A DNA stretch of 64,000 nucleotides from Chlamydiia bacterium (GTDB lineage Bacteria; Chlamydiota; Chlamydiia; Chlamydiales; Rhabdochlamydiaceae): contig CAWDOQ010000002.1 of the NCBI GenBank assembly GCA_963804085.1, positions 256,001-320,000 of the forward strand. Direction: 5' to 3'. Both the position numbers and the translations under genes were made by a program. Under the pieces are notes generated by a model. That model had not been told where the DNA came from, did no database searches, and saw only the letters and a list, made by a program, of their open reading frames with translations. Below are positions 8,995 to 20,130 of the stretch, one piece after another; within the stretch, counting starts at the first letter, position 1, and each line of letters starts with the position of its first letter.

Positions 8995-9570
8995 TTAATC
9001 CGGATTTTGAGGCCCGCCGCCTAAATCCATGCCTTCATAAGGATTGTTTCGACCATGATTATCGTCATCATTATCATGACCACGATCACGTTCTTCGCAA
9101 TAAGCATTATATTCTCTTGCCCATTCTTTCCAAGATTGAACAGCATTATAGCCTGCAAAAGCCGCAACGGGTGGACATTCAATCGCAAGCCCTGCTCCAA
9201 TCGAACTTTCAAGTGCATCCACGAATGCGTCTTTAGCTCGATCGAGATGTTCTTGAGCCTCTCGACTAAGATCCTCTTCTCTACATTGTATAAAGACGCC
9301 CTTATCGTCCAAAGATAGAGATGGAAGCATTATCATCGATCTGTCCTTGCATAGCAAAACGCCTTTGCGAGTAACTGCCATTCTTTCTGGAGCTAAATAG
9401 ACTTTATCGTCTATCCAAGCTTCAACAGAATCTGGTTGCTCTCGGAAAATTTGTAGCGTTTTGATTGCTCCTACGTATCTTTGCAAGGTCACTGATTCAC
9501 GTTGTGCTGCTTGCAAACTAGCATGCATTAAGAATAAACCTGCCGAAACAGTTGCTAAAAGAAAGTGCAT
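8995..9570 (-). CDS. Hypothetical exported protein
   Basis: RBS GGAGGAG before ATG 9570; signal peptide MHFLLATVSAGLFLMHASLQA; acidic C-tail. Confidence 0.65.
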   Translation of the reverse strand: MHFLLATVSAGLFLMHASLQAAQRESVTLQRYVGAIKTLQIFREQPDSVEAWIDDKVYLAPERMAVTRKGVLLCKDRSMIMLPSLSLDDKGVFIQCREEDLSREAQEHLDRAKDAFVDALESSIGAGLAIECPPVAAFAGYNAVQSWKEWAREYNAYCEERDRGHDNDDDNHGRNNPYEGMDLGGGPQNPD

Positions 9571-9634
9571 AACTCCTCCAAAAAATGCAATCGCTCGTAA
9601 GCTATTCTTTTGACTCATAAGTTTCAAGAAAAAA

Positions 9635-10240
9635 TTAAGAATTTAAAACATCCGATGCGAGTTGCGAAAGCCACCTATGGAAGAGCCCGTCTTCTAGCGT
9701 ACAGATGATTTTTGCGTGCTCTTCACCCTGAGAAAGTTTCGAAAGACCCTGACGCATCTCGTTTAGATGCTCCTTCTCTTCCAGGAGGATCGATTTGACT
9801 GCTACTTTGGAATTGCTCTTGCGCAGGATAGCATCGTAGATGGGGTAGAGCTCTTCGGCACGCAGCTCTATGGCATAGGTGACAAGAAGGTAAGCAGAAG
9901 CGCGCATCTCCTCTTTTGCGTGCGTCTGCAGCAGGTAGCGGGATGTTTGCAGATCAAGTTTAGAGAGGTAGTGCAAAGAGGCAGTGCCACCCAGAAGGTT
10001 TGGCAAGGAGTAGTCGGCAAACGTAAGGGGCGTCACTCGGATAATTTGGCGCTTCAGGTAGTGTGCGTGGCGAAACTCCTCCGCAGCGTGTTTGAGCATC
10101 TCCTCTTTGACAAGGGTGGGGTGCTCGCAGCGTGCGATTTTGCGTGCACCGCAGTTCTCCAAGTAGGAGAGGGTGTTGAGCCACTTGGCATGGAGCGTGG
10201 GTGTCTCTACAATTTTTGTGAGTAATGCTTCTAGTTGCAT
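9635..10240 (-). CDS. bioE: Ferritin-like diiron protein, BioE-type pimeloyl-precursor oxygenase
   Basis: Diiron ligands LENCG, HAAEEFRH, YAIE and EEKEH; last gene of the bio operon, overlapping bioA. Confidence 0.7.
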   Translation of the reverse strand: MQLEALLTKIVETPTLHAKWLNTLSYLENCGARKIARCEHPTLVKEEMLKHAAEEFRHAHYLKRQIIRVTPLTFADYSLPNLLGGTASLHYLSKLDLQTSRYLLQTHAKEEMRASAYLLVTYAIELRAEELYPIYDAILRKSNSKVAVKSILLEEKEHLNEMRQGLSKLSQGEEHAKIICTLEDGLFHRWLSQLASDVLNS

Positions 10241-11493
10241 AAGGTTTGTTCTATCCTTTCGTAGATAAATTCTAATTCTTGAGGCTTGATACAGTACGGG
10301 GGAAGTAGATAGAGAACATTGCCAAGAGGGCGGAGAAGAATCTTCTCCTTCAAAAAGAAGCTGTAGAGCTTCTCTCCTCTCTTGTCAAAATAGGAAGACT
10401 CTTCTGTTTTATACTCTAGGACAAGAAGCGTGCCGAGCGATTCACACCGCTTGAGTTTGGGATAACCGTCCCATCTCTGGCAGAATTCTTTGTGAGCCTG
10501 GGCGATTCTCTCTCTTTGTTTTGTGCAAGCATCCGTCAGCAAGAGATCTAAACTTCCAAGCGCGCTTGCGCATGCAAGAGGGTTTGCTGTGTAGGAGTGG
10601 CCATGCAAAAAAGCAGAGGAGAGATGATCGCTTAAGAACGCACTGTAGATCTTCTCACTACATGCAGTTACTCCAAGAGGTAAAAAGCCCCCTGTCAGCC
10701 CTTTGGAAAGAGCGATCATGTCGGGGGTTTCTTTTAGCTTTTCGCATGCAAAGAGCGGGCCTGTGCGTCCAAAGCCTGTCATCACCTCGTCTGCGATAGT
10801 AAGCACACCCTTTACTCGGCAATGCTTTAGAAATAGATCTAATACTTCTGGTGGATAGATGCGCATGCCTCCAACACCCAACACGAGCGGTTCAAAAATA
10901 AAACAGGCGACATCCTGTTTCTCTAATAACTTTAGAAGCACTTCTTCTGCGTCAAATGAGGGGTCGACAGCTTCGACTTCAAACAGATGACTCCAGAAAG
11001 GTTTGTGTATCTGATTTTTGCCAGAAGCTGACATCGCTCCAAAAGTCTCTCCGTGATAGCTCCCCTTCAAACAGATTACTTTTCTTTTCGGGGTATTTTG
11101 GTTATGCCAATATTGAAAAGCCATTTTGAGAGCTGTCTCTACTGCGGTAGAACCATTATCAGAGTAAAAAATCTTGCTCATCTTTCCAGGAAGAATGGCG
11201 ACAAGCCGCTCAGCTAATTCTACCGCAGGAGAGTGGGTAAATCCTGCAAAGAGAACGTGTGGCAATATTGCGAGTTGCGTACAGATCTTTTCGGCAATGT
11301 ATGGATGAGCATGTCCATGCAGATTGACCCACCAAGAGGAGATCGCGTCTAAGTAGCGTTTGCCCTCTTCTGTGTATAAATAGACCCCCTCTGCTCTCAC
11401 AATCGGGATAGAGAGAGGCGCCGTTTGCATCTGCGTGAAAGGATGCCACACAAACGCACGATCTTTTTCAGCTAAAGATTGAGTGTTTGCCAT
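10231..11493 (-). CDS. bioA: DAPA aminotransferase
   Basis: VWHPFTQM, DAISSWWVNLHGH, DEVMTGFGRTG, SKGLTGG. Confidence 0.97.
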   Translation of the reverse strand: MANTQSLAEKDRAFVWHPFTQMQTAPLSIPIVRAEGVYLYTEEGKRYLDAISSWWVNLHGHAHPYIAEKICTQLAILPHVLFAGFTHSPAVELAERLVAILPGKMSKIFYSDNGSTAVETALKMAFQYWHNQNTPKRKVICLKGSYHGETFGAMSASGKNQIHKPFWSHLFEVEAVDPSFDAEEVLLKLLEKQDVACFIFEPLVLGVGGMRIYPPEVLDLFLKHCRVKGVLTIADEVMTGFGRTGPLFACEKLKETPDMIALSKGLTGGFLPLGVTACSEKIYSAFLSDHLSSAFLHGHSYTANPLACASALGSLDLLLTDACTKQRERIAQAHKEFCQRWDGYPKLKRCESLGTLLVLEYKTEESSYFDKRGEKLYSFFLKEKILLRPLGNVLYLLPPYCIKPQELEFIYERIEQTLCN

Positions 11494-12071
11494 AGTTTTG
11501 CATACTTTTTGATGGTGGAACGACTGACAAAAAATTCGGGAAGGAGCCTTGCGAGAAGCGGCACACCAGAGATTTGCAAGATGGCCGATTCGCTTGCAGT
11601 GTTAGGCTTTCCATTAAAGATGAGACCTAAAATGCTAACTCCAGCTTTTTTTAGCGCTTCGATTGTAAGCAGCGTGTGGTTGATGCTCCCTAGGTAGTGT
11701 TGGGAGACAACTACCCACTCGGCATCCCATTTTTTGAACAGATCGAGGCTCACCAGACTCTCTTGTAACGGCGTGAAAACACCTCCGACTGTTTCTATAA
11801 TTAAAGGACCAGTCACGTGCGGCATCTGAATGCGATCGATATCGATGTGAATATTTTCCATACGCGCAGCTTGATGGGGCGAAAGCGGAGCCTTTAGCGC
11901 ATAAGCCGGCCTATGGATGTTAGAAGTTAACCACTTTTGCACAGTGCGCGTGTCGCTTTTGCCGCACTCGATCGGCTTCCAGTAATCTGCTTGTAAAAGT
12001 TGTGCCAAAATAGCCGAGACCACAGTTTTTCCTACGCCTGTTCCTGCACCTGCTACGATGATTCTTTTCAT
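11472..12071 (-). CDS. bioD: Dethiobiotin synthase
   Basis: GTGVGKT, YWKP, SPHQAA, YLGSINHTLLT. Confidence 0.96.
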   Translation of the reverse strand: MKRIIVAGAGTGVGKTVVSAILAQLLQADYWKPIECGKSDTRTVQKWLTSNIHRPAYALKAPLSPHQAARMENIHIDIDRIQMPHVTGPLIIETVGGVFTPLQESLVSLDLFKKWDAEWVVVSQHYLGSINHTLLTIEALKKAGVSILGLIFNGKPNTASESAILQISGVPLLARLLPEFFVSRSTIKKYAKLWQTLNL

Positions 12072-13099
12072 AGATAGGAATAAAGCTCCTCAAGCTGCTT
12101 TTTTGTGTTAAAAGAGTGCAATGTGAGGCGCAGCCTTTCTTTTCCTCTTTGTACAGTAGGACTTAAGAGCGCTCTTACATCAAATCCTCTCTCTTGCAGC
12201 ATCTTTTCCTTTCTTCGGGCAGCGCAATTACCCGAGACAGGTAGAGATTGGATGTGTGAGGAGGCAAGACTCAAAAGGTGGGCACGCTCTTTTTCAAGCT
12301 TGGGGAATAGATCATAGCTAGATTTGATGGCAGCGAGAGCATAAAACGGGAGCGCTGTTGTGTAGATGCAAGAAGGCGCAAAATTGATGAGCGCCTCCTT
12401 GAGTGTTCTACTTCCCAACACGACGGCGCCATAGACTCCTAGGGCTTTTCCAAATGTGACGACCTGTGCGAAGACCTCCTTCTGAAGATTCGCTTGAGCC
12501 ACCAACCCGCGTCCTTCCGGTCCTAAGACTCCTACAGCATGCGCTTCATCTACAATCAGAGAAGAGCGATACTTTTTTGCTAAGCAGCAGATCTCGGCAA
12601 GAGGAGCAAAAGAGCCATCTGTCGAATAGATAGACTCGACACATATGAAGCTCTGTTTGTTTTTCTTTAGCCGCTCTTCTAAATGTGCCAGATCGTTATG
12701 TCTAAAGGGATAAGCGGGAGAGCGACTTAAACGGATACCACTGCGGATCGACGCGTGGACCTCGGCATCATAGATAAAGGACGCGTCACCAAGAGCTGCG
12801 AGCAGTCCGATATTGGCCATATAACCGCAACCAAAAATAAGGCCTGCTTCATAACCGTGAAAATCGGCAATCTTCTGCTCCAAAGCTTCAATGTAGAGAG
12901 AGTTTCCGGTAAGAAGACGCGATCCTGTCGAGCCCAATCTTTCCAGTTTCTTGCTCTCTTCCCGAACGGTATCGAAGAGAAGAGGAGAGCGCGAAAGACC
13001 CAAATAGTCATTAGAAGCAAAGTCGATGAGACCTTTTGTTGTGGAAAGCTTGCGCAAGTTGCCTTGCACTCTCCTTTTATCCAGTCTTTGAATGAGCAT
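12068..13099 (-). CDS. bioF: 8-amino-7-oxononanoate synthase
   Basis: DFASNDYLGL, GSTGSRLLTGN, VDEAHA, TFGKALG. Confidence 0.96.
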   Translation of the reverse strand: MLIQRLDKRRVQGNLRKLSTTKGLIDFASNDYLGLSRSPLLFDTVREESKKLERLGSTGSRLLTGNSLYIEALEQKIADFHGYEAGLIFGCGYMANIGLLAALGDASFIYDAEVHASIRSGIRLSRSPAYPFRHNDLAHLEERLKKNKQSFICVESIYSTDGSFAPLAEICCLAKKYRSSLIVDEAHAVGVLGPEGRGLVAQANLQKEVFAQVVTFGKALGVYGAVVLGSRTLKEALINFAPSCIYTTALPFYALAAIKSSYDLFPKLEKERAHLLSLASSHIQSLPVSGNCAARRKEKMLQERGFDVRALLSPTVQRGKERLRLTLHSFNTKKQLEELYSYL

Positions 13100-14033
13100 G
13101 TAACCCCAAAATCTCAAACATCTCTTTATCTCTGTCTGGGGCGCAATTGGCCACCGTGAGCAGCTTTTCTCCTGAGAAGATCGAATTTGCTCCGGCTAAA
13201 AAACAGAGAGCTTGCTCCTCATATGATAGACGGTCGCGGCCAGAAGAGAGGCGCACCATCGCATGGGGCAGCACAATTCTTGTCGTCGCTACCATACGGA
13301 CCATCTCCCAGATAGGAACCTTCGGCATATTTTCCAGAGGTGTGCCGGGAATGGGAGTCAAAAGGTTGATCGGCACCGAGTCAGGATGGGGATTGCGATT
13401 AGCCAATGTTTGCAAAAACTCGAGCCGATCCTGAATCTTTTCCCCCATACCCAAAATGGCGCCAGAGCAGACGCTTAAACCCGCTTTTTGGACGGTGTCG
13501 AGGGTCTTTAACCTGTCTTGATAGGTGCGCGTTGTGATGATCGTCTTGTAGAACTGCTCTGATGAGTCCAGATTGTGGTTGTAGGCGTACAAGCCGGCCG
13601 CCTTCAGACGCTCCGCCTCCTGCGGTTTTAACATACCGAGTGTGCAGCAGACCTCGACTCCCAGCTCCGCGATCCCCCTTACCATGCGCAGTACCTCTTC
13701 AAACTGCCCACTTGCACGCACCTCGCGCCAAGCAGCGCCCAAACAGATGCGGCTTGCTCCCTCGGCAATCGCCCTCTTTGCCTGCTCTAGCACCTCTTTG
13801 TACTGCATAAGAGGCTGTGCAGAAGTTGAGGTTTGATAGCGGGATGATTGAGCACAGTACTTACAATCCTCCGGACACCCTCCTGTCTTAATCGAGATCA
13901 GGCTGCATACTTGTACCTCCCCCACTTTGTGAAACTTCCTATGCACCTCTTGTGCATAGGCGATAAGCTCCAGTAAAGGGCGGGCATACAGCTCTTCCAA
14001 CTCTCCAAATTTCCAATCAAAGCTTATTGTCAT
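13077..14033 (-). CDS. bioB: Biotin synthase
   Basis: CPEDCKYCAQS radical-SAM motif; YNHNLD. Confidence 0.98.
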   Translation of the reverse strand: MTISFDWKFGELEELYARPLLELIAYAQEVHRKFHKVGEVQVCSLISIKTGGCPEDCKYCAQSSRYQTSTSAQPLMQYKEVLEQAKRAIAEGASRICLGAAWREVRASGQFEEVLRMVRGIAELGVEVCCTLGMLKPQEAERLKAAGLYAYNHNLDSSEQFYKTIITTRTYQDRLKTLDTVQKAGLSVCSGAILGMGEKIQDRLEFLQTLANRNPHPDSVPINLLTPIPGTPLENMPKVPIWEMVRMVATTRIVLPHAMVRLSSGRDRLSYEEQALCFLAGANSIFSGEKLLTVANCAPDRDKEMFEILGLHAHSKTG

Positions 14034-14085
14034 GCGAGCCAGTCTAATCCGTTTTTCATGCTTTTTCCATGCAAAATCATTTGGA

Positions 14086-14106
14086 ATAACCTACTTAATA
14101 GGTTAT
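14086..14106. promoter_or_regulatory. Palindromic candidate operator in the bioB/regulator divergent region
   Basis: ATAACCTA-cttaa-TAGGTTAT, perfect 8-bp arms. Confidence 0.6.
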
Positions 14107-14202
14107 ACAAAACAGATTTAGGTTTAAAAAATGGCGTCTTTTGGAGCAATATGGTAAAACTAGCAAATAGTTGGAAAGAGGCTCAAGGAGGGTTGATTTT
14201 GT

Positions 14203-14991
14203 ATGTTGCAAGTTCTTTGCGGAAATCAAAATGTGCAAAAGATCCTGCTCTTTTTATTCGTGAATGGGAGGTGCTATGGAACGCAGCTGCAGAGGCAGCT
14301 CGGCTCTTCGCTCACACCGATTCAAAAGGCGCTCCTCCGTCTAGAGAAGGGCGGGCTAATCCTGAGCTACTACGAAGGCAAGACCCGCCTCTACCAGTTC
14401 AACCCAGCCTATCCTCTACTTGTGGAACTCGAACATCTGCTCAAAAAAGCGTATACTCTGCTGCCCGCCCACGAAAAGAAGGGTTATTACGTCTCCAAGC
14501 AGGAGGCGGACCTCACCTCCCAGACTAACAAAATCCAGGTGCTGCTCGCTTTTTGGAGCAAACTCTCTTCTGTCACCCAGCTCACTTTTCTCGCCAAGAC
14601 CAAGTCGAAAGAGGAGGGGGGCTGGAATGGGAAAGGAAAGGGCGAGGTTACGATCAGCAAATCGGGCGATAACGTGCTTCTTTTCACGGAGAAGGGAATC
14701 TGGAAAGGAAAACAGGGAAAAGAGGTGAGCTTTAGCAACATCTTTCGCTGGACGCTCGATCGCACCAGCTGCATGATCTCTTTAGAGCACTTAAGACGCG
14801 GTCCAGATCATCCGGTTTTTCTCTTTCATCTTGCGCCTACCAGCCAACAGTCGCTCTCCTCAGTAGACTCCCACCTATGCGATGGGGACACCTACTTTGG
14901 AAAGATCCTCTTTGACAAAAGCTCGCTACGCTTAAACTGGCGCGTCATCGGTCCCAAGAAAAACGAAGAGATCGACTACTTTTATGCTTAA
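14203..14991 (+). CDS. Winged-HTH transcription factor fused to a beta-rich (DUF6314-like) domain
   Basis: N-terminal wHTH (YGTQLQRQL..LTPIQKALLRLEKGGLI..EGKTRLYQFN); C-terminal FTEKGIW..FRW..HLCDGDTY..WRVIGPKKN. Confidence 0.75.
   Translation: MLQVLCGNQNVQKILLFLFVNGRCYGTQLQRQLGSSLTPIQKALLRLEKGGLILSYYEGKTRLYQFNPAYPLLVELEHLLKKAYTLLPAHEKKGYYVSKQEADLTSQTNKIQVLLAFWSKLSSVTQLTFLAKTKSKEEGGWNGKGKGEVTISKSGDNVLLFTEKGIWKGKQGKEVSFSNIFRWTLDRTSCMISLEHLRRGPDHPVFLFHLAPTSQQSLSSVDSHLCDGDTYFGKILFDKSSLRLNWRVIGPKKNEEIDYFYA
14852..14990 (+). repeat. 139-bp direct repeat, copy 1 (3' end of the regulator gene)
   Basis: Matches 19983-20121 with 6 substitutions and no indels. Confidence 0.95.
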
Positions 14992-15135: not shown

Positions 15136-17055
15136 ATGTTGTTTTATACAGCCCTGTTTTTTTCATTCTGTTCGCTTTTTTCTTCGCTTAATGCCACGAC
15201 TTTTGTTGTCACTAATACCAACGACACCGGTCCGGGCTCCCTGCGCGATGCGCTCATGAATGTCTCTGCAAATGATCATGTCGAATTTACCTCCGCCCTA
15301 TCAGGAACAATCACACTCTCTTCTCCTCTGCCTTGGATTAGCAACGATCTTGTTATCCTGGGACCTACCAGCGGAAGCATCACCATTGATGGCCAAGACG
15401 CCTATCAGATCCTCTTTATCAAATCAGGCGTAGTAGAGATTTCCGATCTCACCTTCAGCCACGGCAAAAGCTTAGGAGGAAATGGGGGAAGCTCTTCTGC
15501 AGCAGGAGGCGGCGGAGGCCTGGGGGCCGGAGGTGCAATCTGCTGTAACAATAATTGCTCTCTTGCTCTCACTAGAGTTGCTTTTGCAAACAATTCTGCT
15601 ACAGGTGGGGATGGTGGAAGCGCATCCGCATCTCCGGTTCCCTCTGTAGGCGGCGGAGGAGGCGGAGGATTAAATGGTACTGGAGGCATTGGTGGACCTG
15701 CGCTGCTGGCAGGGGGCGGTGGAGGCGGCGGCGGGGGCTTTGCAAGTACGGGAGGAGCCGGCGATACGGGAGGCGGTGGAGGCGGAGGCATCACAGCTAC
15801 TATTGGGACAACACCATTTTCGGGAGATGCTTTTGATGCATCCGGAGCCTCCGGTGGAAATGGTGGCGTTGGCATAAATAATTTCCATGCTGCCGGAGGG
15901 GGAGCTTCTTCAGACGGCGCTTCTGCGGATCCTACTCTAGGTGGAGGTGGTGGTGGAGCAGGAGGTGGTGCAATGTCTTCTAACAATGGCGGGGTGGGAG
16001 GTAGCGCCGGTGCTATAGGTGGCGGCGGCGGTGGAGGTGGTGGAAATGTTGCAGGAAATGGCGGTACGGGCTCGGATTGGGGAGGCGGAGGTGGCGGTGG
16101 CGGCAGCATTCTTTCTACAAATGTAGGTTCAGGAGGCAGTGGAGGATTGGGAGGCGGGGGTGGCGGTGGCGGCTCCGGTTCTTTGAGTTCCAGTTTAGGA
16201 AATGGTGGCAGTGGAGGACATGGCGGAGGAGGGGGCGGAGCATCCCCGGGCGCAATAGGCGGAGTCGGCGGCACTCATGCAGGTGCGGGTGGAGATAATG
16301 GTGGAGGAGGCGGAGGTGGAGCGGGATTGGGAGGAGCTGTTTTTGTTGCAAGCGGAGCCTCGATCCTTGTGCAAGATGAACTTTCGCTCTTTTCTAGCAA
16401 TACCGTGACAGGAGGAAATGGAGGCAGTGGAGCAAATACCGGCACTCCAGGAGCAGGAGTAGGAGCAGATCTGTTCATTATGAGTAATGGCGAAGCGGTT
16501 TTCACAAACAGCAATGACATTCCTTTTTCTATTCGGGTAGGCGGGCAAGGGTTAATTTCTAAAGAGGGCGAAGGAGATCTTAACTTGATCGGCGACTCTT
16601 CTCCCGATAACGCGATTATGTTGTTTGCTCAAACAGGTAAGCTTGCGATCTCAGGAACATTTGGAGGCAACCTCCATATCAGAGAGGATGCGCGCACAGA
16701 AGGGGCATCTAGTATCGCAAGCCTAAACAATTCCGGAACGTTTTCTTTGGGAAACACCATACAAACATGCTCCATTATCAATGGCTTTTTGCAGCGTTCT
16801 ACAGGGGTAGTGGAAATTAAAATCGATCCATCCGGAAACTCTGATCTTTTGCAAATAGGCGATTCCGCCCTTCTAGATGGGACATTGCATATCATCGCAT
16901 CTCCCGGTTCGTATATCTCCGGTACCACTTATACGATTATCACTACTCAAGGAAGAGTATCTAGAACATTCAACACCATTCTTATATCCTCATCCCCTTC
17001 CCTGAACATCCAAGTCAATTATCTATTTAATGCTGTTCAACTCGTAATCGAATAA
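15136..17055 (+). CDS. Glycine-rich autotransporter-passenger-like surface protein with no beta-barrel
   Basis: Signal peptide; VTNTNDTGPGSLRDAL; long GGGGG repeats; autochaperone-like end ...VNYLFNAVQLVIE*. Confidence 0.8.
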   Translation: MLFYTALFFSFCSLFSSLNATTFVVTNTNDTGPGSLRDALMNVSANDHVEFTSALSGTITLSSPLPWISNDLVILGPTSGSITIDGQDAYQILFIKSGVVEISDLTFSHGKSLGGNGGSSSAAGGGGGLGAGGAICCNNNCSLALTRVAFANNSATGGDGGSASASPVPSVGGGGGGGLNGTGGIGGPALLAGGGGGGGGGFASTGGAGDTGGGGGGGITATIGTTPFSGDAFDASGASGGNGGVGINNFHAAGGGASSDGASADPTLGGGGGGAGGGAMSSNNGGVGGSAGAIGGGGGGGGGNVAGNGGTGSDWGGGGGGGGSILSTNVGSGGSGGLGGGGGGGGSGSLSSSLGNGGSGGHGGGGGGASPGAIGGVGGTHAGAGGDNGGGGGGGAGLGGAVFVASGASILVQDELSLFSSNTVTGGNGGSGANTGTPGAGVGADLFIMSNGEAVFTNSNDIPFSIRVGGQGLISKEGEGDLNLIGDSSPDNAIMLFAQTGKLAISGTFGGNLHIREDARTEGASSIASLNNSGTFSLGNTIQTCSIINGFLQRSTGVVEIKIDPSGNSDLLQIGDSALLDGTLHIIASPGSYISGTTYTIITTQGRVSRTFNTILISSSPSLNIQVNYLFNAVQLVIE

Positions 17056-17109
17056 TATCAGCTCATCTATTTAGTTTTAAAATTCGCACGCATATCGTAT
17101 GTAATAAAC

Positions 17110-19961
17110 ATGCGACGCATTGTTTGTTTTGCCGTTTTTTATGGGACAGTGTCCAACTCGATTCTCTTTTCTGCAACATGGAATTTAAACGCGAACGGCA
17201 ATTGGAATGTGAATGGCAATTGGACTTCGCCTTCTATCTTTCCCAATGGTGTAGATGCTGTTGCCATTTTCGGCAATGTGATCACAGCCAATCGAAACGT
17301 GACGCTAGGACAGGACATTACAATAGGGACAATAAATTTCGACGACAACAATCGCTATACCATCACCGCTGCGGCTATAGACGCGCTTACATTTGATGTC
17401 AGTTCGGGAAATGCAGCAATCAATATCACTAATGCAAACGGAAATGGACCTCATCGCATTCTCAACGATATGGTTTTTAATGACACTATTGTAATCGATC
17501 ACAACTCAACAGGAATATTTACCCTCTCAGGGATGATTTCGGGAAGCGGGGGGCTAACAAAAACCGGTTCTGGCACAACAGAACTGGATAACAGCACTAA
17601 TGATTATGCAGGAATTACCACAGTCAACGCAGGCGTTCTCGACTATATCACAGCCGGCTCCATTCTAGGCGGCAATACAGTAATCATCAACGGAGGCTCG
17701 CTTACTATCGACCAGACGATGGGAGGATCTGACGCATTAAATATCACAATCAATTCCTTGGGGACGCTTAACCAAGGAACCAATGATACAATTCGTTTGC
17801 TTACCCTGCAAGGAGCAGGAGATCTGGTCTTGACTACTTCTACTGGCGGAGGAAGTCTTTTAGAATTTGAAGGAACAGGAGCCGACACCACCTTTTCGGG
17901 TGCGATCTCGGGAGGCGCTACGAGTGGATCGAGTAATCCCAATGTAGGCAACCGTATAAGAAAACTAGGCTCTTCTGCTCTAACTCTTACAGGGTCTAGC
18001 AGTTATGTCTCTAGAACCTTTCTCAACGAAGGTGTGATCAATGTTCAAAATTCTAATGCTTTGGGCGCAGCAGGAGCAAATAGCGGCGTTTTTATAGAAG
18101 CAACGAGTGCCGCCCTTGAAGTGCAAAATAATATCACTTTGAGCAAAGCGTTAAATTTAAATGGATCGGGAATCGGCGGTAATGGAGCACTGCGAAGCAT
18201 AAGCGGAAACAACACTTTAAGTGATACAGTACAAATCGGCTGGTCCGGTGGACCTGTCTCACAAGCTGCCGCTACAATTGGCGTTGATGCTGATGTGTTA
18301 ACCATAAGTGGAACGCTGCAGGGATCTCAAAGTTTTATAAAAGTCGGAGCAGGAACATTACTGCTTTCCGGAACGGGCAACATCACTTCCAGCACTGCAA
18401 TAAACCAGGGAAAACTCCAGGTAACCGGATCTTACACAAGCACGGGCGGCCTTTCGGTAGCATCGGGAGCCATTTTAGCGGGAACCGGGACAGTGACTAG
18501 CAGCTCCTCCATCAGCGGGACCCTTGCACCCGGAAACAGCATTGGGACAATCATATTAGTAGGCACCGAAACCCTACAGTCTGGGTCGACACTTGAAATC
18601 GAAACTTCCCCCGCATTGGCAGATCGAGTAAATATCACCGGGACTCTAACCATTCAACCGGGCTCTACTCTTAAAGTCATCCCGGAAGCAGGAGTCTACT
18701 CCAAACAAACCTCCTATCTGATTGTTCATACAACTGGAGGCGTAACAGATACGTTTAGTGCGTTCAACATGACACTTCCTACGTTTTCTGCAACCGCTCA
18801 ATATACTGCTACCGACATTTTTTTAATTTTATCCACAGTTCCCTTTTCCAATCTGATAAAACACGGTAATGCAGGAGCTATAGCTAAATGCCTCTCTACC
18901 GCCACTCCCTCGGCAGGCAGCGATCTTTCCCTTATCATCGCACAATTGCAGTTTTTCACCCTCGATGAGATCCGCAATGCTTTGAATCAGATGCAAGCCT
19001 CAGCTCTTACCTCTCTTGCTCTTGCACAGGAATATTCGACTCTTTATATGAACGACGCTATTTTTGATCGTCTGGATCAACTGATCCGCCCTCGCGCATT
19101 CCGCCTACCAAGCAAGCGCCTCTCATTTTGGTGCGTGCCATTCGGCGCACTGAGTAGGCAGCAAGAAAAAAAGAAGAGCCGGGGTATCGCACGTGGACAG
19201 GCGGCTTCACAACCGGTCTTGACTACGCATGGGACAAAGGGATCGTAGCAGGAACAAGCGCAGGATATAGCTACATAGACCTATCTTGGAATGAGCGGCG
19301 CGGCCACTCTGTGATGCAAAACGGATATGGCGCGATTTATGGTAGTTTCCAAAACGATCTTTGTTATTTGTTTACGAGTGTAATTGGGGGTTATAACCAC
19401 TATGCCGTCTCGCGCCACATCATCTTTCCACAGGACTCTATCATCCCTGTCAACCGTAGAGCAAAAAGCAATCACAATGGACTCCAAGGATCAGGACACT
19501 TAAAAACCGGTCTTTTCTTCCAATATAACCATTTTAAACTCTGCCCTTTTGTTGCTGCCGATTATATCTACTTACACGAACAGAGCTTTAAAGAACATGG
19601 AGCCAAGAGCTTAGATCTGGATGTAAGCAAGAAAAACTCCAACTTTCTCGATTTAGAAGCCGGCTTTCAAATATCGGGGTATTTCTGCTCGAAAAAGAGT
19701 AAATTCTCTCCGACGATCGGAGTAAGCATTATTAGAGAGGAACGATTTCAAGGGCAACACTATCGCGCTAATTTGAAAGACTCCTCATGCACTTTTACTG
19801 TGACAGGGCTTAACCCCAACCGCACATTATGCGGCACAAAAGCAGGCTTTACTACGCTTTTGCCCAACGAAAATTGCACCCTTTCTTTCGATTATCTTGG
19901 AAGATATGGAACTAACTTCCAAGATAGCGTCGTTGAAGCGAGCTTTCTCTACCGGTTTTAA
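17110..19961 (+). CDS. Autotransporter with passenger-associated beta-strand repeats; barrel out of frame at A7 (19166-19172)
   Basis: LTKTGSGTTEL and KVGAGTLLLSG repeats; adding one A gives EEPGYRTWTGGFTTGLDY continuing into a barrel ending FLYRF. Confidence 0.88.
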
Positions 19962-19982
19962 ATGCGCAGATTAGAGAGAAAG

Positions 19983-20121
19983 CGCTCTCCTCAGTAGACT
20001 CCCACCTATGCGATGGGCACCCCTCCTTTGGAAAGATTCACTTTGACAAAAGCTCGCTACGCTTAAACTGGCGCGTCATCGGCCCCAAGAAAAACGAAGA
20101 GATCGACTACTTTTATGCTTA
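19983..20121 (+). repeat. 139-bp direct repeat, copy 2
   Basis: About 96% identical to 14852-14990; frame intact (LSSVDSHLCDGHPSFGKIHF...DYFYA*). Confidence 0.95.
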
Positions 20122-20130
20122 GTATAGGAT

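Follow-up and report, generated by a model that had tools for sequence, protein, structure and literature searches.

We report here that a 64,000-nt stretch of the genome of a Chlamydiia bacterium of the family Rhabdochlamydiaceae (assembly GCA_963804085.1, contig CAWDOQ010000002.1, positions 256,001 to 320,000; hereafter the window) encodes a candidate regulator, REG, in which a winged helix-turn-helix (wHTH) is followed by a DUF6314 domain and whose gene is transcribed head-to-head with the biotin operon bioBFDA-bioE. The genomic context of its homologues and the conservation of its operators make it quite probable that REG serves biotin supply in environmental chlamydiae as a dedicated, sequence-specific transcription factor, which would bind the palindrome wAAACTA-N5-TAGTTTw and regulate its own gene. 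A preliminary description of the window had pointed to this divergent arrangement of a wHTH plus DUF6314-like gene and the bio operon, and to a perfect palindrome at 14086-14106 in the 169-bp gap between them; all these elements proved to be present. The features needed at the outset are the following.

14203-14991, plus strand: REG, candidate regulator, an open reading frame (ORF) of 262 residues with winged-helix and DUF6314 domains
13077-14033, minus strand: bioB (biotin synthase), which opens the divergent operon, with Radical_SAM and BATS domains
14087-14105, no strand assigned: operator site 1, TAACCTA-N5-TAGGTTA, centred at 14096, about -62 from the inferred bio start; the only 14/14 match in the assembly
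14156-14174, no strand assigned: operator site 2, AAAACTAGCAAATAGTTGG, an 11/14 match that lies 29 bp before the REG ATG

REG and bioB diverge from an intergenic region of 169 bp (14034-14202), in which the longer 8+5+8 form of site 1, ATAACCTA-CTTAA-TAGGTTAT, occupies 14086-14106.

The association of REG with biotin genes was followed in two overlapping samples. Sample A comprised 61 related genomes with 27 full-length REG loci, while sample B came from a scan of one genome per species that gave 194 relatives, of which the best 80 were used, all of them labelled chlamydial or mislabelled metagenome-assembled genomes; after removal of duplicates, 95 distinct REG proteins were available. Full-length REG was present in 26 of the 61 genomes of sample A, bioB in 18 and both in 10, and when REG and bioB occurred in one genome they were adjacent and divergent in nine of the ten cases, the tenth (G019) having a truncated bioB on another contig. 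The remaining 16 of the 26 REG genomes lack bioB, and there REG is usually divergent from bioY. Altogether, the head-to-head neighbour of REG in sample A was a biotin gene at 22 of the 27 loci (nine bioB, 12 bioY and one BPL_N, with five other neighbours), the bioY calls resting on Pfam BioY matches at seven loci (E 1e-24 to 1e-37) and on tblastn at five more. The expectation of the preliminary description that homologues would co-locate with bio genes was borne out in sample B as well, where a biotin gene faced REG at 72 of the 80 loci (47 bioB, 23 bioY, one bioD and one BPL_N), and among the distinct proteins, of which 84 of 95 faced such a gene (bioB 52, bioY 29, BPL_N 2, bioD 1). On the REG tree, bioB and bioY replaced each other as the neighbour about ten times, and branches with SH-aLRT of at least 95 force two to four of these replacements in this quick maximum-likelihood tree; the linkage has therefore been renewed, not just inherited.

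A stand-alone BPL_N gene (PF09825, the N-terminal domain of eukaryote-type biotin ligases) often follows the REG-linked bioY or itself faces REG, as at loci L003, L005, L007, L009, L011, L012 and many of L041-L120. From their position, these BPL_N proteins appear to be further members of the predicted REG regulon.

The second line of evidence is the operator. A perfect inverted repeat (arms of at least 8, spacer 0-12) was found in 305 of 5000 dinucleotide shuffles of the 169-bp region, so the palindrome by itself is weak evidence; across homologous loci, however, a 19-bp consensus emerges, wAAACTA-N5-TAGTTTw, usually present in two copies. With the window's own site fixed beforehand as the pattern, upstream regions taken from -160 to +10 and a threshold of 11/14, an operator was found in 54 of 80 REG upstream regions versus 26 of 1600 dinucleotide shuffles, which answers in the affirmative the question of the preliminary description whether homologues keep the palindrome. 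The 13.6 kb of upstream DNA contained 70 sites, and the remainder of these loci, 492 kb in total, contained 16. Operators in the 80 loci peaked at about -115 and at -50 to -20 from the REG start, two or more being present at 51 loci, one at 25 and none at four. Site 1 of the window has no equal in the assembly, as nowhere else in its 2.13 Mb does TAAMCTA-N5-TAGKTTA match at 14/14; a search of the window allowing three mismatches returned two sites versus 1.46 expected and was uninformative. Genomes of the sample that carry bioB and lack full-length REG had no operator within 400 bp of bioB (0/8), whereas the bioB remnant of G019, which lies away from its REG, retains two (14/14 and 12/14). Hence a conserved operator upstream of biotin genes co-occurs with REG, as it would for a biotin regulator in the functional sense. 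The REG gene of G019 sits beside bioY on another contig, and the remnant itself (L029, G019:C77) is a decayed bio operon in which residues 1-186 of BioB abut residues 108-198 of a BioE-like protein, which points to an internal deletion.

The arrangement of the control region bears on how REG might act, and two promoters were drawn in it.

14041-14069, minus strand: inferred bio promoter, -35 TGGAAA (14069-14064), 17-bp spacer, -10 TAGACT (14046-14041)
14104-14132, plus strand: candidate REG promoter, -35 TATACA (14104-14109), 17 bp, -10 AAAAAT (14127-14132); a weak assignment

The conserved blocks of 38 bioB-linked intergenic regions are a minus-strand TTGAAA-17-TAAAAT, site 1, GGTTTAAAAAT, and site 2 together with the Shine-Dalgarno sequence and the REG ATG. 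The window's bio promoter aligns with the TTGAAA-17-TAAAAT block of these relatives, and the -35 of the candidate REG promoter overlaps the right arm of site 1, with its -10 inside the GGTTTAAAAAT block. A promoter scan by consensus matching covered 70 bioB- or bioY-linked loci, 56 of which had both a site and a promoter. In the homologous loci site 1 lies upstream of the conserved bio promoter, and site 1 was separated from the -35 by 16-19 bp in 19 of the 56 loci, by 27-30 bp in 29 and by other distances in eight. Depending on the spacing class, the centre of site 1 falls near -62/-63 or -73/-74, the site extending from about -53 to -71 in the 19 loci and from about -64 to -82 in the 29. These two classes, one helical turn apart, swap about ten times on the REG tree. 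The distances between sites 1 and 2 likewise cluster, at 66-70, 77-82, 85-90 and 99-101 bp, with a periodicity of about 10.5 bp. As for the plus strand, the best promoter most often places its -35 at offset 15 from site 1 (19 of 56 loci), versus offset 17 in the window. The new finding here is this position of operator 1 upstream of the conserved bio promoter, in two helically phased spacing classes; the geometry is unusual and may point to positive control.

The domains of the protein were assigned on AF2 models.

Residues ~1-95, 14203-14487, plus strand: REG wHTH
Residues 96-121, plus strand: helical linker
Residues ~122-262, 14566-14988, plus strand: DUF6314 barrel of 10 strands

Membership of the DUF6314 family (PF19834) is supported by a Pfam match at residues 138-258 (E 4.2e-11, 43.8 bits versus a cut-off of 23.1) and by a score of 45.4 bits in the whole-genome scan, above the Pfam gathering threshold. 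The wHTH is more divergent in sequence: residues 9-53 gave a weak match to HTH_24 (E 6e-4, 19.7 bits, under the cut-off of 21.9), and the matches to ArsR-type NCBIfam models were weak as well (NF033788, 18.4 bits versus a cut-off of 55). The model of the whole protein, built on an alignment of 26 sequences with a mean column identity of 62%, reached a pLDDT of 89.5, and the barrel modelled separately 95.5. Residues 1-91 match the fold of HlyU (4k2e, Z 10.3, root-mean-square deviation (rmsd) 2.4 over 82 residues in structure alignment), and also resemble SmtB (8qkf, Z 9.9), BigR (3pqj, Z 9.9) and MarR-family chains (Z up to 10.1). The C-terminal model consists of an N-terminal helix and a closed 10-stranded antiparallel barrel, whose fold matches include CpeS, OlmO, Rv2717c and THAP4-nitrobindin (Z 10.4-11.1, rmsd ~3.5 A, 135-142 residues); Foldseek concurs, with nitrobindin and Ycf58 at TM ~0.58. 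A sequence search of solved structures with REG found no relative, the best E-value being 0.019. As modelled, then, REG is an ArsR/MarR-like wHTH joined to a nitrobindin/CpeS-like barrel. Fused and stand-alone barrels share, with little or no variation, a set of polar residues (E163, N179, W183, H196, R198, H224, C226, D229, Y231 and K253), a pattern that would fit a specific small-molecule pocket.

The family appears to be widespread within one order. The full-length REG profile matched 222 of 400 sampled genomes of the phylum at E <=1e-30, wHTH-only paralogues included, and the barrel profile 188 of 400 at E <=1e-15; among the matches listed, all REG and barrel matches fall in the window's own order. 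REG was found in 0/29 genomes of one family of the phylum, and DUF6314 matches in 0/14 model genomes. The protein database holds 1032 relatives of REG; of the 120 listed all carry PF19834 and none is functionally named, the family appearing under the names hypothetical, wHTH, HTH arsR-type and DUF6314. Each of the two halves also occurs separately. Genes for wHTH-only paralogues of ~111-120 residues, 44-52% identical to residues 1-98 of REG and accompanied by ACCAA/TTGGT repeats of their own, are present in most related genomes, and may represent the ancestral module that the barrel joined. Stand-alone DUF6314 proteins of 149-216 residues were found at 18 loci (L162-L179, Chlamydiota) and keep the REG motifs LEHLR, PHxC..D.Y and GPxKNE; one of the loci (L164), beside bioBFD, has REG in two pieces, wHTH and barrel. 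Outside the analysed loci, a search with a three-sequence alignment of stand-alone barrels returned one short metagenome contig only.

The window's own genome carries such a wHTH-only paralogue (G000:C12:28956-29824), of 111 residues and 48% identical to residues 1-98 of REG, which overlaps the start of a 178-residue ORF with no Pfam family and is preceded by two ACCAA-N5/6-TTGGT repeats. At another locus (L128, G036:C203, ~1960-2010), a cation-diffusion-facilitator-like ORF is preceded by two palindromes in tandem, ACCTA-N5-TAGGT and AACCG-N7-AGGTT, which may be the operator of a different wHTH paralogue and not of REG.

The mechanism that we propose would start with the winged helix, presumably as a dimer given the palindrome, binding the 19-bp operator. 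Two such operators would be available between REG and the divergent biotin gene, namely bioBFDA-bioE in the window, its place being taken by bioY(-BPL_N) in many of the relatives. The weak promoter of REG would be covered by operator 2, and probably by operator 1 as well, or lie upstream of them, which would bring about autorepression; site 2 would serve as a downstream roadblock if the REG promoter has its -35 on the right arm of site 1. The sigma-70-like bio promoter has operator 1 on its upstream side, from where REG might act on RNA polymerase from a fixed face of the helix, as site 1 occurs at -62/-73 in two classes spaced by one turn. The 10-stranded C-terminal barrel would be the sensor.

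Several observations weigh against a regulator dedicated to biotin. The loci are kin by descent, with 47 of the 92 inner branches of the REG tree supported below 80, and 11 of the 95 REG loci have unrelated neighbours. The bioY-like genes of the window's own genome carry no operator, nor does the sole bioY of the five genomes in which REG stands away from biotin genes (0/5 with an upstream operator; three of the five are 58-84% complete), and a loose pattern scan of these five for targets in trans gave fewer matches than the reversed control and no convincing target. Such data could suggest that REG is a generic autoregulated wHTH protein or an antitoxin-like partner, its bio neighbourhood being inherited synteny without regulatory meaning. 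The wHTH-only paralogues with their own repeats are indeed common in the same genomes, and the 11 loci with unrelated neighbours still keep operators; at the eight non-biotin loci of sample B, these neighbours are also mutually unrelated (DUF818, DUF6829, a DUF4442 thioesterase-like protein, a NEL ligase and pyrroline-5-carboxylate (P5C) reductase). We regard this explanation as very improbable, however, since the biotin genes beside 84 of the 95 REG proteins are of non-homologous kinds and were exchanged repeatedly, operator 1 holds a fixed helical phase to the bio promoter, and operators are gone from all eight bioB loci sampled in genomes without full-length REG.

Granting a role in biotin supply, what the barrel senses is a separate matter. 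Biotin itself is the most likely ligand, an assignment that we make tentatively, since it is all that bioB operons, bioY and BPL_N have in common. The preliminary description had also considered a precursor, which now appears unlikely: 7-keto-8-aminopelargonic acid (KAPA), 7,8-diaminopelargonic acid (DAPA), dethiobiotin and pimeloyl-acyl carrier protein (ACP) were dropped as general ligands of REG, since most REG genomes, the 16 of 26 without bioB, import biotin only. The idea of a small-ligand barrel put forward in that description held in so far as the model is a closed, 10-stranded, nitrobindin/fatty-acid-binding-protein (FABP)-like barrel. Avidin and streptavidin were absent among the fold matches listed by Foldseek and VIA-align for both models, the avidin-type barrel having eight strands and a Trp/Tyr/Ser/Asn biotin pocket, and lipocalins and FABPs gave only weak Foldseek E-values, from 4e-3 to 2e-2. 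This absence speaks against biotin as the ligand, as does the fact that the closest folds are those of haem-binding (nitrobindin, THAP4, Rv2717c), bilin-binding (CpeS, CpcT) or lipid-binding (the FABP-like Ycf58) proteins. Furthermore, 17 of the 18 stand-alone barrels have no biotin gene, wHTH, operator or shared neighbour within 3 kb on either side, and the barrel alone is therefore not linked to biotin by context. REG could then control biotin genes while its barrel reads another signal, such as long-chain acyl or fatty-acid status, haem or iron, or the redox state through cysteines: the His224-x-Cys226 motif varies little or not at all in any of the barrels, Cys24 of the wHTH is almost fully conserved, and BioE consumes long-chain acyl-ACP according to the accessible text of PMC12704756. 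We consider such a signal unlikely, in view of biotin being the only common denominator of the REG-linked genes and of the exclusion of pathway intermediates as general ligands.

The location of operator 1 outside the conserved bio promoter leaves the sign of control between activation and repression. Class I activator sites are centred at -61.5 and -72.5, and LysR sites near -65. We incline, with some reserve, to the view that ligand-free REG activates the bio/bioY promoter from a class-I-like position and that biotin acts as an anti-activator, because the position of site 1 and its one-turn classes resemble those of class I, LysR- or PdxR-type regulators. Against activation, ArsR/SmtB- and MarR-type proteins are mostly repressors, and the bio promoter is near consensus (TTGAAA/TAAAAT), which is unusual for activator-dependent promoters and would call for restraint instead of help. 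All four described biotin regulators repress, too, as stated in the accessible parts of PMC11089781 and, for BioL, PMC12704756. The geometry invoked here also depends on promoters drawn by consensus matching: a generic promoter consensus scan of the window's intergenic region gave no match, and in the window 7 nt separate the bio -10 from the bioB ATG, without a Shine-Dalgarno sequence, since the ~45-nt bioB leader with a GGGGGA-type site that is found in relatives is missing there. Either bioB is leaderless in the window or the assignment of promoter or start is wrong. The classical alternative, which keeps the same core claim with the other sign, is that biotin-bound REG sits on both operators and shuts its own gene and bio/bioY; a weaker minus-strand promoter, TTTAAA-17-TAAACT, can also be read in the conserved blocks, and its -10 falls within site 1, where it would be directly occluded. 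Such co-repression is a credible possibility, if a somewhat doubtful one: no operator overlaps the conserved TTGAAA-17-TAAAAT promoter in the scanned loci, site 1 lies outside the core footprint of the polymerase in both spacing classes, and plain occlusion leaves unexplained the one-turn spacing classes that were renewed about ten times.

If activation by ligand-free REG and a biotin-binding barrel are taken together, REG would be the reverse of every described biotin regulator, an activator working from -62/-73 that is switched off when biotin occupies its DUF6314 barrel. This combination is on the whole unlikely; were it true, DUF6314 would constitute a new fold for binding biotin, unlike that of avidin, and the many stand-alone barrels would themselves be small proteins that bind biotin.

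The preliminary description had held that the architecture of REG matches none of BirA, BioR, BioQ and BioL, and REG indeed fails each of their defining domain tests. Class II BirA is similar in organization, having an N-terminal winged helix with a biotin-related effector domain, a palindromic operator between divergent biotin-gene promoters and feedback of biotin status on bio transcription. REG, however, contains no PF03099 biotin protein ligase (BPL) catalytic domain at E up to 0.1 and therefore cannot make or sense biotinyl-5'-AMP in the manner of BirA; the sole PF03099 match in the genome is a separate 248-residue ligase without an HTH, so that no rival BPL-type regulator is present. Its 19-bp operator, with site 1 off the bio promoter, is unlike bioO, the BirA operator of ~40 bp. 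BioR (GntR/FadR, Alphaproteobacteria) differs as well, since REG scores 14 bits against GntR (E 0.041, cut-off 27) and has no FCD domain, and so does BioQ (TetR, Actinobacteria), REG having no TetR match and being modelled as a wHTH plus beta-barrel. BioL (MocR, Weeksellaceae) has a comparable context, as it governs a pathway of the BioE type and, in some species, is transcribed divergently from bio genes; from what is accessible of PMC12704756, it is a protein of ~56 kDa with a GntR HTH and an aminotransferase-like domain, senses KAPA and binds 46-bp operators. REG, by contrast, has 262 residues, neither a GntR HTH above threshold nor an aminotransferase domain, and KAPA is not its general ligand.

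Other likenesses concern logic or fold. As in PdxR (MocR) and LysR-type regulators, the gene is divergent from its target, with a site upstream of the target promoter and over its own, an arrangement that combines autorepression with activation, although there is no kinship in sequence or fold and activation by REG is a prediction; apo-PdxR activates the divergent pdxST, with pyridoxal 5'-phosphate (PLP) as the anti-activator, according to the accessible text of PMC10450172. The modelled wHTH fold and the putative palindromic operators resemble those of the ArsR/SmtB and MarR repressors HlyU, SmtB, BigR and SqrR, whereas the sequence stays below the family cut-offs and the C-terminal barrel replaces the metal or thiol sites. 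The barrel resembles nitrobindin/THAP4, Rv2717c and CpeS/CpcT (4tq2, Z 11.0, rmsd 3.6, 142 aligned; 2fr2, Z 10.7; 3ia8, Z 10.4), but these proteins are 6-12% identical to it, bind haem or bilins and have no fused DNA-binding domain. For nitrobindin/THAP4 in particular, a family of 10-stranded barrels with a haem-ligating histidine, the resemblance is one of overall fold (Z 10.0-10.7), and there is no Pfam match to that family.

According to two papers, the known biotin regulators are missing from chlamydiae. In its accessible part, Fisher 2012 (PMC3459881) describes Chlamydia as being without BioQ, BioR and class II BirA and raises "a novel mechanism", and a 2024 review names BirA, BioR and BioQ only among biotin regulators, as far as its accessible text goes (PMC11089781). 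BioE and the MocR-type, KAPA-sensing BioL were described in December 2025 (PMC12704756, PMC12915131, both in part); the accessible text of PMC12915131 has the genus Chlamydia without BioL, and Zhang 2025 terms this absence a "striking paradox". Our literature search, with supplementary files outside its reach, found no published description of REG and no paper on "DUF6314". Together with synteny and operators, this supports the earlier proposal that the system is an undescribed form of biotin control in Chlamydiae, insofar as sequence comparison can indicate. REG would hence represent a so far undescribed family, in a kind of system that is known, and is very probably a switch for biotin supply. 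If so, it would be a fifth family of biotin regulators, structurally unrelated to BirA, BioR, BioQ and BioL, and provide the first functional context for DUF6314. The family offers a defined operator, natural spacing classes that bear on activation versus repression, and a possible new scaffold for binding small molecules; it also sets regulated environmental chlamydiae apart from the 29-genome family in which no REG was found.

The remaining genes of the divergent operon in the window are as follows.

12068-13117, minus strand: bioF (8-amino-7-oxononanoate synthase-like), Aminotran_1_2 E 3e-41; its order beside bioB is kept in homologous loci
11472-12071, minus strand: bioD (dethiobiotin synthetase-like), AAA_26 E 1.5e-49
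10231-11493, minus strand: bioA (aminotransferase class III), Aminotran_3 E 5e-88
9635-10240, minus strand: BioE-like ORF of the ferritin-type diiron kind, 201 residues, the last recognisable gene of the operon; weak COQ7 match (E 0.005), with E28, E55xxH58 and E155xxH158

The spacing of E28, E55 and H58 in the 201-residue ORF equals that of E41, E68 and H71 in the BioE of Chlamydia psittaci as given in the accessible text of PMC12915131, and the ORF fits BioE by its place in the operon and its ExxH spacing. The ORF that follows (8995-9627, 210 residues, with a hydrophobic N-terminus and without a family) is possibly co-transcribed.

Two further features of this genome deserve mention. Its second bioY-like gene (G000:C17:805-1305) lies on a GC-rich stretch unlike the rest of the assembly, which may belong to the 5% contamination reported for the genome. 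At the other end of REG, the last ~140 bp of the gene (14852-14991) recur 5 kb downstream at 19982-20122 with ~95% identity, the repeat covering residues 211-262 (81% by tblastn). Between the two copies, the block 15136-19961 holds a Gly-rich ORF of 639 residues that matches no Pfam family. It also contains a PATR passenger ORF at 17110-19248 and, at 19311-19961, an ORF for an autotransporter beta-domain, whose match begins at position 66 of the 255 of the profile. The autotransporter looks split between 19248 and 19311, and the block as a whole has the appearance of an insertion at the REG 3' end.

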